Below are positions 10,527 to 19,596 of a DNA stretch of 64,000 nucleotides, one piece after another. The notes beneath the pieces were generated by a model. It was not told the origin of the DNA. It was given only the letters and a program-made list of their open reading frames with translations, and ran no database searches. Both the position numbers and the translations under genes were made by a program. Every line of letters begins with the position of its first letter. Positions within the stretch are counted from its first letter, which is position 1. The DNA comes from an uncultured Gammaproteobacteria bacterium (lineage in GTDB: Bacteria; Patescibacteriota; Patescibacteriia; UBA1558; 2-01-FULL-52-15): assembly GCA_964402565.1 (NCBI GenBank), contig CAYOCJ010000002.1, positions 79,392 through 143,391 of the forward strand, written 5' to 3'.

Positions 10527-10598
10527 ACTACTATCATCCATCTCCTATAGTATTTGCTCAGAATACCCTGTATACTAAGCATAAGAATTTCCGTTACT

Positions 10599-11315
10599 AT
10601 GGTTAAGCGTTATCATCCCATTTCGATAGCACGGTTCAAAAAAAATAACAGGAACGGCTTCACCTTGATCGAGTTGCTGGTAGTTCTGATGATTACAGTC
10701 ATTCTCAGCGTTCTTGCCTTCCAGGGATATGCGTATATTACCGTGAAGCAGCGTGATAGTCAGAGAAAATCCGACATGCAAACCTTTGTCACGAAGCTCG
10801 AGGCATTTAAAAATGATAAAGGCACCTATGTGTGTGGCGATACTTGTTCTCATGCATATGTGGGCGGTGTCGACGCGGGTTGGTATAGCATTAGCTGCAA
10901 CGGTGGCTATGTTTCGCCAGGGAATGCCACCGGTAACGATTTGCCTCTCGAACGGTCCGGTTTCTTGAACGGAGGCGATTGTTGCGGCGCTGGCAAAGGA
11001 GGATTCCCGATACCAACAAGCACTGCTGATGATTCAACATGGGGGTTGTACCGTTTCAACTATCTGACCGCGACGAGTAATCCGAGTGATCCTTTGGATG
11101 CGGTGGTCAATGCCAAGAACTACTATTACTGTTATGCAACGCCAAATAAGGGACGGACAAGCTATGCTCTGTTCATGCGCCTGGAGAATGATAGTAAAAC
11201 AACAGCGAATGACGGCGGCCAATTGCCAACCTACTATGAATACTACAGCCCGGATTATCCGGCCAATGGTTGGAATCCTGTCAAAGACGGCCCCGGAGGT
11301 ATTTGGGCATATTAA
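10599..11315 (+). CDS. Type IV pilin-like protein (prepilin with class III signal peptide).
   Basis: N-terminus ...NRNG|FTLIELLVVLMITVILSV: G-F cleavage/N-methylation site with E+5. Confidence 0.7.
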   Translation: MVKRYHPISIARFKKNNRNGFTLIELLVVLMITVILSVLAFQGYAYITVKQRDSQRKSDMQTFVTKLEAFKNDKGTYVCGDTCSHAYVGGVDAGWYSISCNGGYVSPGNATGNDLPLERSGFLNGGDCCGAGKGGFPIPTSTADDSTWGLYRFNYLTATSNPSDPLDAVVNAKNYYYCYATPNKGRTSYALFMRLENDSKTTANDGGQLPTYYEYYSPDYPANGWNPVKDGPGGIWAY

Positions 11316-11342
11316 GAACCTTTTTCTGGGTTTTTGTGGTAT

Positions 11343-11371
11343 TTGACAAAAAACTCGTTTAGGATTATAAT
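11343..11371 (+). promoter_or_regulatory. Consensus sigma70 promoter (TTGACA-N17-TATAAT).
   Basis: TTGACA at 11343-11348, a 17-nt spacer, TATAAT at 11366-11371; upstream of the 23S rRNA. Confidence 0.6.
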
Positions 11372-11475
11372 CAAGACGCTTTAAAAAGCTGGTATCAAAA
11401 GCCTCTATATAATATGTCTACATCAGTAACGAATACGATCGCATAAGTGGATTTCTCATCGTGCTGATTTGTTGA

Positions 11476-11502
11476 GAATCCGCTACGCTAGCGGATTTTT
11501 TG
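11476..11502 (+). terminator. Terminator-like hairpin plus T-run lying between the consensus promoter and the 23S rRNA.
   Basis: GAATCCGCTA-CGC-TAGCGGATT followed by TTTTTT. Confidence 0.45.
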
Positions 11503-11829
11503 GACCTTAGAGGGTACTTTTTACAAGATAGTTGTCAGATCATAGAGTTGCTGCTGGTTAGCAACTATATAGTGTGGCAACAATCGGCGTACGTTGACAA
11601 CGCCGATGCCTAACAAGCATCGGACCTCCGAATCCGTCAGCCGACGGAGCGGAGCAAATGATATGTATGAGCATCTAAAGTCTCAAAGGCAGAGAGTTCC
11701 GCTTTTGAGACCTCGAAATGAATTGAATACAATGTTACTTATAAGTTTTAGTTGATACTTCCGCCAAAGGCGGATCCGCTTAATTTCAGTTGTAAGCTGA
11801 GGTGGCGGAAAAGACTGTTGAAGTTTTTA

Positions 11830-17134: not shown

Positions 17135-17674
17135 GTGTGCAAGCATACTGTCGCTATGCCGCTTAGAAGGAATCATAGCGGATTTACGCTGATTGAGTTG
17201 TTGGTCGTAATGGCGGTTATCGGACTTCTTGCTGCTATCGCCATCGTTAGTTTCAATGCAGCGCGTAAGAGGGCATATATTTCCCAAGGCCTAGCGACCG
17301 CACGAGCGATTGTGCCTATGCTCGCAAGTTGCCAGCAAAGCGATGGGGATATTGTTGCAGATTATGATGTCGACGGCTCAGGGAACGTCACGACTCTCCA
17401 CCTCTGTGGCGAAGCAGGCATTGTTATAGGTCAGGGGAAATCCATTTGCAGCAAGGATTATACTATCGGAGCTCCGCCGCCGCTGATTAAAGCCGGTGAT
17501 CTTCGGTGGCCGATAGTATTGCCAAGCTGGGATTATGGCGCGTCAAGTCCTATTTGCCATCAAAATAAAAATGCAGGCACTTTTGATTTTTCTATGCGGC
17601 GTAATGCTGTCGGCCAACCTTGCTTTGTTACGTGTTCTGAATCCAATTGCCAAACATCAGGTGCAGGGTGTTAG
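17135..17674 (+). CDS. Type IV pilin-like protein.
   Basis: ...NHSG|FTLIELLVVMAVIGLLAAIAIVSFNAA; Cys-rich C-terminal part. Confidence 0.7.
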   Translation: MCKHTVAMPLRRNHSGFTLIELLVVMAVIGLLAAIAIVSFNAARKRAYISQGLATARAIVPMLASCQQSDGDIVADYDVDGSGNVTTLHLCGEAGIVIGQGKSICSKDYTIGAPPPLIKAGDLRWPIVLPSWDYGASSPICHQNKNAGTFDFSMRRNAVGQPCFVTCSESNCQTSGAGC

Positions 17675-17866
17675 TTACGCATGGCTCACAGATAAAGGGT
17701 AACTGGTCAGGAGCATGAAAGTAAATTTGTTTTTGAAAGGCGTGGCCCTGCCTCCCTAGAGAAACGTGGGTTTTTCTACGGGTTTGTCTTTTTCTGAAGC
17801 TATGCTAAGGTAGATTTTTCTATTTGTTCATACTATTTTCCGGGTGAAAACCCCCTGGAGGTTTCG

Positions 17867-18877
17867 ATGAAGAAACTGCTGGTTATCGTCTCTTTGTTGT
17901 TTTCAATCGTGACCACGCCAGCTCAGGAAATCGAAGCACCTCAGCGTCCGAGCCCAAGTGAAATCCAGTCTTTGTATCCACCGGTCCACCCACAGCATCC
18001 TTGCGCATTGGTCGAGTATTCGTACGACAATCTCTGCGGTGTCGAAGGCGCAGATGAGCTTCAGAAAGCGATGCGTTACCTGTCCAGTTTCATGGGCGAC
18101 GAACAGAGTAGGAGCGCCTGCTACGAGCAGAACCGCTTCTGTTATGCTGCAGTAACTGCCCGTGATCTTCTCGGCCTGCCGAAAGGCGCGGTCATCGAGA
18201 ACTTCGGCTTCGCCGGGCATTACTGCGATATCAGGAATTGGAAGAAGGATTTTCCCAAGTGGCAGAAGATCGAACAGCAAGTTCGCAAAAAAAATACGGG
18301 ACCCATCAATCCTGCCAAGGTTCCTGATTGTACCCCTGAAGGGCGCACCTGGTTCATCGACTACCATGAAAACAAGTACGATCAGCAAATGTGCGATCCG
18401 TTGCACTGGCTGGATTACGAATGTGACCAGGGCGATGACAGTATCAACTGGCGGCTCGACAGCATGCGCAGGGACATGGTGTATCCTCCTTGTGAGGTAC
18501 AGGTTTTCGCCGGGCTTGAAGATAAGTTTGGCGATTTGGAAAAGCATTGGTTTTGCTACGAACTGTCGAAGACCGACCGCGCAGAAAGCGCCCTCGACTC
18601 CGATGAGCCTGATGCAGCGCCCCCTGATGATTGCGATTGGGGCTGGCGTTATGTGCTTAGTCAGGTCGAGTGGGGCAAGGGCAGGCCGGCGGATCCTCAC
18701 GATCGATGTTCGTCGAGCCAGCATGTTTTTTTCTCACATCTGAACGTTCAGGAAGGCCATCGGTTTTTGGCACAAGTTGAAGCTTACTTCAGAGCCCTCC
18801 ATCCTCACTACGATCCGGCCCAGATCAAGAAAGCTTGCGACTATCTCAAAGCACGAGAGAAGTCACCCGAACCGTAA
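17867..18877 (+). CDS. Secreted Cys-rich hypothetical protein.
   Basis: Signal peptide MKKLLVIVSLLFSIVTTPAQE; many Cys residues; no known domain. Confidence 0.5.
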   Translation: MKKLLVIVSLLFSIVTTPAQEIEAPQRPSPSEIQSLYPPVHPQHPCALVEYSYDNLCGVEGADELQKAMRYLSSFMGDEQSRSACYEQNRFCYAAVTARDLLGLPKGAVIENFGFAGHYCDIRNWKKDFPKWQKIEQQVRKKNTGPINPAKVPDCTPEGRTWFIDYHENKYDQQMCDPLHWLDYECDQGDDSINWRLDSMRRDMVYPPCEVQVFAGLEDKFGDLEKHWFCYELSKTDRAESALDSDEPDAAPPDDCDWGWRYVLSQVEWGKGRPADPHDRCSSSQHVFFSHLNVQEGHRFLAQVEAYFRALHPHYDPAQIKKACDYLKAREKSPEP

Positions 18878-18887
18878 GCCGCACCAG

Positions 18888-18960
18888 CGACAAAGTCGCT
18901 TCTGGGAGTTCAATCTCGCCCCGTAGTGAAACTAAAGTTTCACTACGGGGCTTTATTTTA
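18888..18960 (+). terminator. Conserved hairpin motif copy 2, followed by an intrinsic terminator.
   Basis: GCCGCACCAGCGACAAAGTCGCTTCTGG, then GCCCCGTAGTGAAACTAAAGTTTCACTACGGGGC followed by TTTATTTT. Confidence 0.55.
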
Positions 18961-18984
18961 GAACTATTCTAAGTATGCTATGCT

Positions 18985-19596
18985 GTGTGTATGAAAAAAA
19001 ATCACGGTTTTACGCTGATCGAGATTCTGGTCACGGTCATCTGCCTGGTCATTATCGCGCTTTCAGCGATTCGCGCTGTGTATGGCGCGATTGAGAAAAG
19101 CAGGGATAATCGAGTTGTCGCGGATTTTAATATGTTGCAGAAGGGGCTGGCTGAGTTTTACGTCAAATACTACGTATATCCGTGCGGAGATAACTACGAT
19201 CAAGGCAACGGTGCGATGTATAAAGAGTATACCGTTGATACGACCAATGATGGCGTTAGTTTTTTGCAGGGCAATACGAATGATCCGGCTTCGACAGAAT
19301 ACGCAGATGTTGTGTCACATTGTGCGGGTGTGCAGTTTGGCTTGCAGCAGGATAATATCATCAGTAGCGACATTTTGAAGCCGATAGATCATCCCCACCC
19401 TGGGGGCAATCCATGGACCTATGGGTATGAAGTCGACTCTACACGTAAATCGTATATTTTGTTTACCGTGCTTGAAAACAATCCAGCACGGATGGCAAGC
19501 GATCACGGCAAATGCAAAAATGTATATGAAGTCGGCAATGGCGTTGGCGTGATTCCGCCGCGTGTCGAGGACTTGGGCCTGGTGTGCATTCCGTAG
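18985..19596 (+). CDS. Type IV pilin-like protein.
   Basis: MCMKKNHG|FTLIEILVTVICLVIIALSAI prepilin leader. Confidence 0.75.
   Translation: MCMKKNHGFTLIEILVTVICLVIIALSAIRAVYGAIEKSRDNRVVADFNMLQKGLAEFYVKYYVYPCGDNYDQGNGAMYKEYTVDTTNDGVSFLQGNTNDPASTEYADVVSHCAGVQFGLQQDNIISSDILKPIDHPHPGGNPWTYGYEVDSTRKSYILFTVLENNPARMASDHGKCKNVYEVGNGVGVIPPRVEDLGLVCIP

Follow-up and report, generated by a model that had tools for sequence, protein, structure and literature searches.

We analyzed a 64-kb stretch of contig CAYOCJ010000002.1 from an uncultured patescibacterial genome (hereafter, the window), in which a block of five genes (15344-19672) in the order sec1-pilin-pilin-sec2-pilin lies between the 5S ribosomal RNA (rRNA) gene and a convergent phoH gene. 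The two sec genes encode secreted proteins, and each ends in a copy of a short, near-identical repeat with a hairpin at its core; the positions of all features are collected in Table 1. The original prediction had described this repeat as a possible shared terminator or attenuator, or as an RNA element coupling the expression of the secreted protein to that of the pilin. It had also placed four prepilin genes within the same span, which additionally contains a 23S-5S rRNA operon (11830-15343) that had been missed and that parts the first prepilin gene from the other three.

All four prepilin genes were borne out. The products match the Pfam family N_methyl (PF07963, E-values from 4e-10 to 5e-07) and TIGR02532 above cutoff, and each carries the N-terminal cleavage and methylation motif G|FTLIE followed by a hydrophobic helix. 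Two of the start codons are better placed slightly downstream of those proposed previously: for the third gene, ATG 17156 is most likely, in preference to GTG 17135, and for the fourth, ATG 18991 is more likely than GTG 18985, which lies 2 codons upstream. The pilins of the two units are alike only in the generic N-terminus. Further pilin genes are found elsewhere in the window (37026-37847 and 37873-38607 on the minus strand, and 50236-51084), along with a PilB/T-type ATPase (34145-35188) and housekeeping genes. The window, taken from a contig of 512,989 bp, appears to belong to a small genome.

The signal peptides reported for the two open reading frames (ORFs) preceding the pilins are likewise present, with a basic N-terminus, a hydrophobic core and an A-Q-D/E site; they are of the Sec type, and neither protein has a prepilin motif. 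The in-frame codon usage of sec1 and sec2 is similar to that of the neighboring genes. The two proteins are unrelated to each other, and each matched only itself among 5.8e9 proteins. For sec1, no match was found in PDB or NCBIfam, and the only Pfam match, to Big_1 (0.0046), was below the cutoff. For sec2, no match was found in Pfam, NCBIfam or PDB, and a full HMMER search of 1.84e9 representatives returned nothing credible, the two marginal multi-stretch matches (6.5e-05 and 1.4e-04) being noise. Single-sequence AlphaFold models of the two proteins had predicted local distance difference test (pLDDT) values of 36 and 38, too low for a fold search that might bear on the suggested role as minor pilins or tip proteins.

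The 26-nt motif proposed to follow both secreted-protein genes, CCGCAC[A/C]AGCGACAAAGTCGCTTC[C/T]G, was recovered at exactly two sites on the forward strand, 16403-16428 and 18879-18904, with 24 of 26 nt identical. No other match with up to 3 mismatches exists in the window, and none is expected (100 shuffles). The true extent of the repeat is 28 nt, AGCCGCAC[A/C]AGCGACAAAGTCGCTTC[C/T]G, with 26/28 identical positions, and it begins within the upstream stop codons, taking in the AG of TAG (16400-16402) in the first copy and the last A of TAA (18875-18877) plus a G in the second. Outside these 28 nt, the similarity between the copies is lost abruptly on either side. The core is a perfect 6-3-6 palindrome, AGCGAC-AAA-GTCGCT; the two substitutions that distinguish the copies show no compensatory pairing. 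The copies have the same orientation and are spaced by 2476 bp. An assembly artefact can be dismissed, because both copies also occur in an independent Logan assembly (L007, SRR12313480) that matches the window without a difference over 9.3 kb. Translation of the motif by read-through was ruled out, given that its reading frame relative to the stop codon differs between the copies.

The predicted structures of the two copies differ. In copy 1, AGCCGCAC (16401-16408) pairs with GUGCGGCU (16433-16440) in an 8-bp outer stem that closes over a 7-bp inner hairpin, AAGCGAC-AAA-GUCGCUU, and the U-tract UUGUCUUUUGUUG (16441-16453) lies directly 3' of the outer stem. In prefix (co-transcriptional) folding, this two-tier structure has an energy of -21.4 kcal/mol. 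An alternative fold is more stable (-26.2 to -32.2 kcal/mol, z = -6.5) and also ends in the U-tract; both folds are terminator-like, and neither is conserved in copy 2. As modeled, copy 1 is a complete Rho-independent terminator, of which the motif forms the 5' two-thirds. Copy 2 has no complement to AGCCGCAC and no closing outer stem. Its 6-bp hairpin amounts to -7.2 kcal/mol alone, with a pairing probability of ~0.59 in context, and is followed by UCUGGGAGUUCAAUC, not by a U-tract, the nearby U-tract belonging to a separate hairpin (18918-18951). By these fold predictions, the motif in copy 2 is not a terminator by itself, and the predicted transcript end must come from the separate hairpin. 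Thus, the earlier idea of a shared terminator stands for copy 1, which lies inside a full intrinsic terminator, and falls for copy 2, the hairpin of which lacks a U-tract and has a separate terminator downstream. No Rfam family was assigned to the motif at gathering thresholds, and nothing but noise appeared at E<=5.

Set beside typical Rho-independent terminators, copy 1 shows the expected GC-rich stem-loop and U-rich tract right after the stop codon, and a canonical 15-bp terminator follows copy 2 at a distance of 14 nt; however, the conserved piece in copy 2 has neither the closing stem nor the U-tract. Terminators of unrelated genes do not normally share 26 of 28 nt.

The layout of the promoters bears directly on the proposed coupling. 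Upstream of the pilin genes at 16469, 17156, 18991 and 50236, a -10-like hexamer (TATACT, CATACT or TATGCT) ends exactly 6 nt before the ATG (the spans from the -10 element to the ATG being 16454-16471, 17144-17158, 18976-18993 and 50221-50238, respectively), and because of this spacing, these genes are predicted to yield leaderless transcripts. The pilin gene at 50236 has the same succession of terminator, U-tract, -10 box and ATG without the motif, behind a different hairpin. Furthermore, the U-tract word TTTGTCTTTT stands behind three different hairpins (15491, 16441 and 17783), followed in each case by a -10-like box, and these sets look like compact terminator-promoter units. A similar arrangement was observed at glmS, where TGCTAAGGT lies 7 nt before the ATG (21724-21742). 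The layouts of the pilin genes and glmS together suggest that leaderless mRNAs and compact terminator-promoter units may be widespread in this genome.

Unlike the pilin promoters, the TGCTAAGGT elements of sec1 and sec2 are located ~55 nt upstream of the start codon. Given that each has its own predicted promoter layout, the sec genes and the pilins look like separate transcription units, with the motif at the end of the sec unit. Because the pilins have -10 boxes of their own, the motif would separate the sec genes from the pilins, not couple them. The suggestion of an attenuator, or of an RNA element coupling the secreted protein to the pilin, was therefore not supported: the predicted pilin -10 boxes leave no leader, and the two folds of copy 1 both resemble terminators and have no counterpart in copy 2. 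More generally, the lack of a predicted pilin leader, of mutually exclusive folds conserved between the copies and of an Rfam match speaks against attenuators and riboswitches.

The similarity between the two sec units is not confined to their 3' ends. Upstream of sec1 and sec2, an 81-nt stretch can be aligned with 55 identical positions (68%; 17783-17862 on the sec2 side), in the same register and at the same 84-nt distance to the start codon, with an E-value of ~1e-4 to 4e-4 against the whole window. Conserved structure in the 5' untranslated regions (UTRs) was ruled out, given that the folds were not better than those of shuffled sequences (z = -0.2 and -1.3). The explanation that we prefer, and to which we give roughly even credence, treats the motif as part of a Rho-independent terminator located at the 3' ends of two secreted-protein ORFans. 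In copy 1, the whole terminator would be present, with the U-tract directly after it and then the -10 box of the next, putatively leaderless, pilin gene. Copy 2 would be reduced to the first 28 nt, a small stand-alone hairpin, and the strong terminator 14 nt downstream would end the transcript. Because the sec genes share the promoter, leader and Shine-Dalgarno (SD) sequence (81 nt) and not the coding sequence, the repeat would be the trace of an "expression frame" that was duplicated or recombined locally as the block took shape, and the block would have grown by small frames consisting of promoter and leader, gene and terminator. The element would end, and probably stabilize, the sec mRNAs and would shield the downstream pilin promoters from read-through. 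The two terminators on either side of sec2, T_a and T_b, are also alike (T_b taken from 18921 to 18959), with 27/39 identical positions (69%) and the common arms TAGnGAAAC and CTACGGG. This likeness hints at an insertion or duplication of the sec2 unit along with a terminator. Overall, the repeat is most likely a leftover or reused terminator piece and not a new RNA switch tied to the pilins.

Several points weigh against this explanation. The motif is identical at 26/28 positions compared to 68% identity in the 5' frame, and the probability of at least 26 of 28 matches, if both stem from one neutral duplication and diverged equally, is ~0.002; therefore, the hairpin is either under extra constraint or the product of a more recent conversion, and extra constraint, if true, would favor a specific binding or regulatory role. 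Copy 2 retains the motif although it is not needed there for termination. The similarity ends sharply at the stop codon and past position 28, as at a recombination junction. Finally, consensus matches and predicted folds are the sole basis for the terminators, promoters and leaderless starts, and the search covered 72 kb of a contig of at least 513 kb.

The first two of these points are also what speaks for a selected regulatory site, a reading that we regard as unlikely though worth keeping in sight. The motif might be an RNA hairpin in the 3' UTR, bound by a protein or a small RNA that co-regulates the stability or translation of the sec mRNAs, or a DNA operator at which a dimeric regulator controls the neighboring promoters. 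The core palindrome is perfect, copy 2 keeps the motif outside the terminator, and the promoter and leader common to both sec genes suggest co-regulation. However, two copies are too few for covariation, and the two substitutions are not compensatory; the distance from the palindrome to the pilin -10 element is ~40 nt for copy 1 and ~86 nt, with a terminator in between, for copy 2; and the other pilin promoters lack the motif. Nor is there an adjacent regulator gene (Pfam scans) or an Rfam match.

The history of the block was approached through relatives with a PhoH homolog. Only three were available, with 48-63% identity and all on short contigs, and only one of these contigs (L013) reaches the 5S gene. 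In this relative, the PhoH of which is 50% identical, the 5S rRNA gene is located 197 nt from the stop codon of the convergent phoH, with no pilin or sec genes in between. For the closest relative (L012, 63% identical), the contig ends 43 nt beyond phoH. The five-gene block thus appears to be lineage-specific, being missing from the 5S-phoH spacer of L013, the sole readable relative. A foreign origin by composition was ruled out, as the GC content of the block (0.47-0.53) brackets the window mean of 0.486. No integrase or transposase was identified by Pfam scans among the ORFs of the 64-kb window. The phoH terminator of L013 (5990-6040) reads AAGCCCGC-A-GCGAC-ACA-GTCGC-GC-GCGGGCTT, the arm also being given as GCGGGCUU followed by UUU. 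In a syntenic position, it matches copy 1 in its two-tier design and in its inner stem, GCGAC-N3-GTCGC. We do not claim homology and regard this likeness as no more than suggestive: the best of 4853 background tiles scores equally well, and the E-value obtained with the covariance model was 2.9.

The absence of the block from this spacer is among the observations expected if the motif were a recombination handle or cassette boundary, at which coding sequences are exchanged or the 2.48-kb segment between the direct repeats was inserted or duplicated, varying the surface proteins beside the pilins. We consider this less probable still than a regulatory site. The flanks of the sec genes are conserved and the coding sequences unrelated, the boundaries of the similarity coincide exactly with the stop codon and position 28, the copies form direct repeats at a distance of 2476 bp, and similar terminators, T_a and T_b, stand on either side of sec2. 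However, the window contains no integrase, transposase or recombinase and no attC-type core sites, a repeat of 26-28 nt is only just long enough for homologous exchange, and the block has the same GC content as the genome, with no sign of recent import. Moreover, the two samples are identical in sequence, with no variant, and the pilins of the two units share the generic N-terminus only. Neither the regulatory-site nor the recombination-handle reading has positive support beyond the pattern of conservation.

Known systems offer partial parallels to such exchange. In the variable lipoprotein genes of Mycoplasma (vsp/vlp), the promoter, leader and signal-peptide region are conserved, and the mature products differ; here, there are only two genes, their 5' identity is 68%, the proteins contain no internal repeats, and no invertase or phase-variation signal was seen. 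As at integron attC sites, imperfect hairpins are located at or just after the stop codons of unrelated ORFs in a row, and the hairpin of copy 1 (~55 nt) is near the size of the smallest attC sites. In this locus, however, each gene has its own predicted promoter, and an attC site was ruled out because there are no RYYYAAC/GTTRRRY cores, no IntI or attI in the window and no second arm in copy 2. The Sma/Cla repeat of Neisseria is a 66-bp element located at the 3' end of pilE and in the pilS loci, where it enhances pilin gene conversion (PMC4023411). The likeness lies in a conserved non-coding repeat at gene 3' ends in a pilin locus, with variable coding sequence beside it; however, the motif here follows non-pilin ORFans, is 28 nt long versus 66 and bears no sequence resemblance to Sma/Cla, and there are no silent pilin cassettes, the pilins sharing N-termini only. 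A more specific scenario, which we hold to be quite improbable, is that the 81-nt 5' frame and the 28-nt 3' hairpin are the handles of a cassette system that swaps unrelated secreted-protein genes, possibly encoding adhesins or host-interaction factors, beside leaderless pilins.

The distribution of the motif was examined in the genome itself and in public sequence collections. The search of the genome covered the window and an extra 8 kb (L015), that is, 72 kb or ~14% of the 513-kb contig. No third copy was found in the window at 8 mismatches, and none in the extra 8 kb. A covariance model built from the two copies detected nothing else significant in 97.6 kb from this organism and the three relatives (next best E=0.097). 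AGCCGCAC occurs three times on the forward and once on the reverse strand, compared to 1.1 expected per strand, and the over-represented words include no 8-10-mer that contains the motif. In collections that do not include the source genome, the 19-base core pattern had 10 matches, 6 of them in species-representative genomes (596 Gb) and 4 in JGI metagenomes; each was in an unrelated taxon and agreed with the motif only in the searched 19 bases, and their number is that expected by chance. No viral contig contained the core pattern. Uptake sequences (DNA uptake or uptake signal sequences, DUS/USS) were ruled out by the lack of over-representation, although CCGCAC resembles the complement of the Haemophilus USS core.

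These data bear on the reading that the motif belongs to a genome-wide family of small palindromes, akin to repetitive extragenic palindromic (REP) sequences or miniature inverted-repeat transposable elements (MITEs), two members of which lie here by chance. As in REPs and bacterial interspersed mosaic elements (BIMEs), we see short, imperfect, intergenic palindromes just after stop codons with a possible role as a 3' mRNA stabilizer or terminator. Another small repeat, of 31 nt, is present in the locus (15017 and 15458, diverged at 15412) and shares AGCGAC..AAAG..GTCG with the motif, and about 14% of the contig was inspected. However, REPs number in the tens to hundreds and frequently accompany a REP-associated tyrosine transposase (RAYT). 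In the 72 kb searched here, we found two copies, confined to 2.5 kb, with no diverged copy at 8-9 mismatches or by the covariance model, no over-representation of the motif words, and no RAYT, Y1 or IS200-type transposase among the ORFs of the window. Related copies are also absent from the 596 Gb of genomes, the JGI metagenomes and the viral contigs. Within the 72 kb, the motif is thus not the generic REP-like repeat that had been named as the outcome contradicting a link to pilin genes, and we rate this reading as the least probable of all those considered.

Table 1. Features of the rRNA-phoH region (positions in the window; strand as indicated, a dot denoting no strand)
Feature	Position	Strand	Description
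Prepilin gene 1	10599..11315	+	N_methyl 6.8e-08, TIGR02532; no motif nearby
23S rRNA and 5S rRNA	11830-14976; 15226-15343	+	Rfam LSU 2525 bits, 5S 85 bits
sec1 expression frame (predicted)	15491..15574	+	U-tract TTTGTCTTTTTT; extended -10 TGCTAAGGT (15511-15519); leader ~49 nt; SD GGAGG 5 nt before GTG
sec1	15575..16402	+	ORFan, signal peptide, 275 aa; weak Ig-like C-terminal match
Motif copy 1	16401..16428	+	28 nt, overlaps TAG; 5' arm AGCCGCAC and inner hairpin AAGCGAC-AAA-GTCGCTT
Two-tier intrinsic terminator of sec1 (fold prediction)	16401..16453	+	Outer stem 16401-16408/16433-16440; U-tract 16441-16453
Extended -10 of pilin 16469 (predicted)	16454..16462	+	TGGTATACT, ends 6 nt before ATG
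Prepilin gene 2	16469..17131	+	N_methyl 8.6e-08, TIGR02532
Prepilin gene 3	17156..17674	+	N_methyl, TIGR02532; CATACT ends 6 nt before ATG
Terminator T_a (terminator-like site)	17754..17792	+	After prepilin gene 3; hairpin and TTTGTCTTTT
sec2 expression frame (predicted)	17783..17866	+	U-tract, TGCTAAGGT, leader, GGAGG 5 nt before ATG
sec2	17867..18877	+	ORFan, signal peptide, 336 aa, 13 Cys
Motif copy 2	18877..18904	+	28 nt from last A of TAA; 6-bp hairpin only
Terminator T_b (predicted)	18918..18959	+	Strong 15-bp stem (hairpin 18918-18951) and TTTATTTT, 14 nt past motif copy 2
Extended -10 of pilin 18991 (predicted)	18976..18984	+	TGCTATGCT, ends 6 nt before ATG
Prepilin gene 4	18991..19596	+	N_methyl, TIGR02532; ATG 18991
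Bidirectional terminator (predicted)	19625..19664	.	Between prepilin gene 4 and the convergent phoH-PIN gene
phoH-PIN gene	19673-21346	-	Convergent to prepilin gene 4

Several other observations were made in the rRNA region. The 23S rRNA is 3147 nt long compared to 2925 positions in the Rfam model, corresponding to ~220 nt of insertions, one of them apparently at ~12040-12150, and no 16S gene is adjacent to the 23S-5S pair. The 31-nt repeat, ACCCTGAGCGACCAAAGGGAGTCGAATGGGT, flanks the 5S gene, with identical copies at 15017-15047 and 15458-15488 and a copy of 71% identity at 15412-15442, in which the outer stem ACCC/GGGU is replaced by AUCCC/GGGAU; its fold is not better than those of shuffled sequences (z = -0.5). 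The first base of the Logan contig L007 corresponds to window position 15459, one base into the repeat. The 23S-5S spacer contains a 39-codon ORF (15092-15211, forward strand) for a very hydrophobic peptide, MFIHILRKLATSRVVRLALVLAGISIILGLVLVLTPISA. This ORF overlaps the 3' strand of a putative 23S processing stem (15063-15106, pairing with 11660-11751) and may either have arisen by chance or encode a small membrane peptide. Just upstream of the pilin gene at 10599, the last 15 nt of tRNA-Leu(CAG), TCTCCATGCCCACCA (10334-10348), are exactly repeated 109 nt downstream (10443-10457), beside a perfect 20-nt palindrome (10423-10442); this could be an old scar, of the attachment (att) type, of integration at the tRNA gene.

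Duplicated genes are found elsewhere in the window. Two tandem genes for Kup-type potassium transporters on the minus strand (3728-5740 and 5763-7781) are ~72% identical at the DNA level, and a third permease gene (7946-10048) has a weak K_trans match. Two tandem paralogues at 57041-58552 (75% identity over 286 nt) encode a MerR-type helix-turn-helix (HTH) and a WxL-like domain. Past these paralogues, up to ~72 kb (L015), large ORFs with few or no family matches follow (fn3, LysM, Big_13 and a 1550-aa ORFan), and the stretch from 57041 to ~72 kb may be a second surface-protein region.

Taken together, the repeat is a real but ordinary feature, a lineage-private, duplicated piece of terminator that represents a known kind of element. 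At present, it is of little consequence, except as an example of the reuse of small terminator-promoter units in a compact genome and of the gathering of ORFan surface genes and pilin genes next to an rRNA operon. The layout of U-tract, -10 box, 6 nt and ATG is a useful rule for annotation in this lineage. If the hairpin were a true protein-binding or recombination site, it would offer a handle on the regulation or diversification of secreted proteins in poorly known, pilus-rich bacteria. A cassette system, if true, would represent a variable block in a hotspot between the 5S rRNA and phoH genes and would provide an ultra-small, probably host-dependent bacterium with a way to vary its surface.

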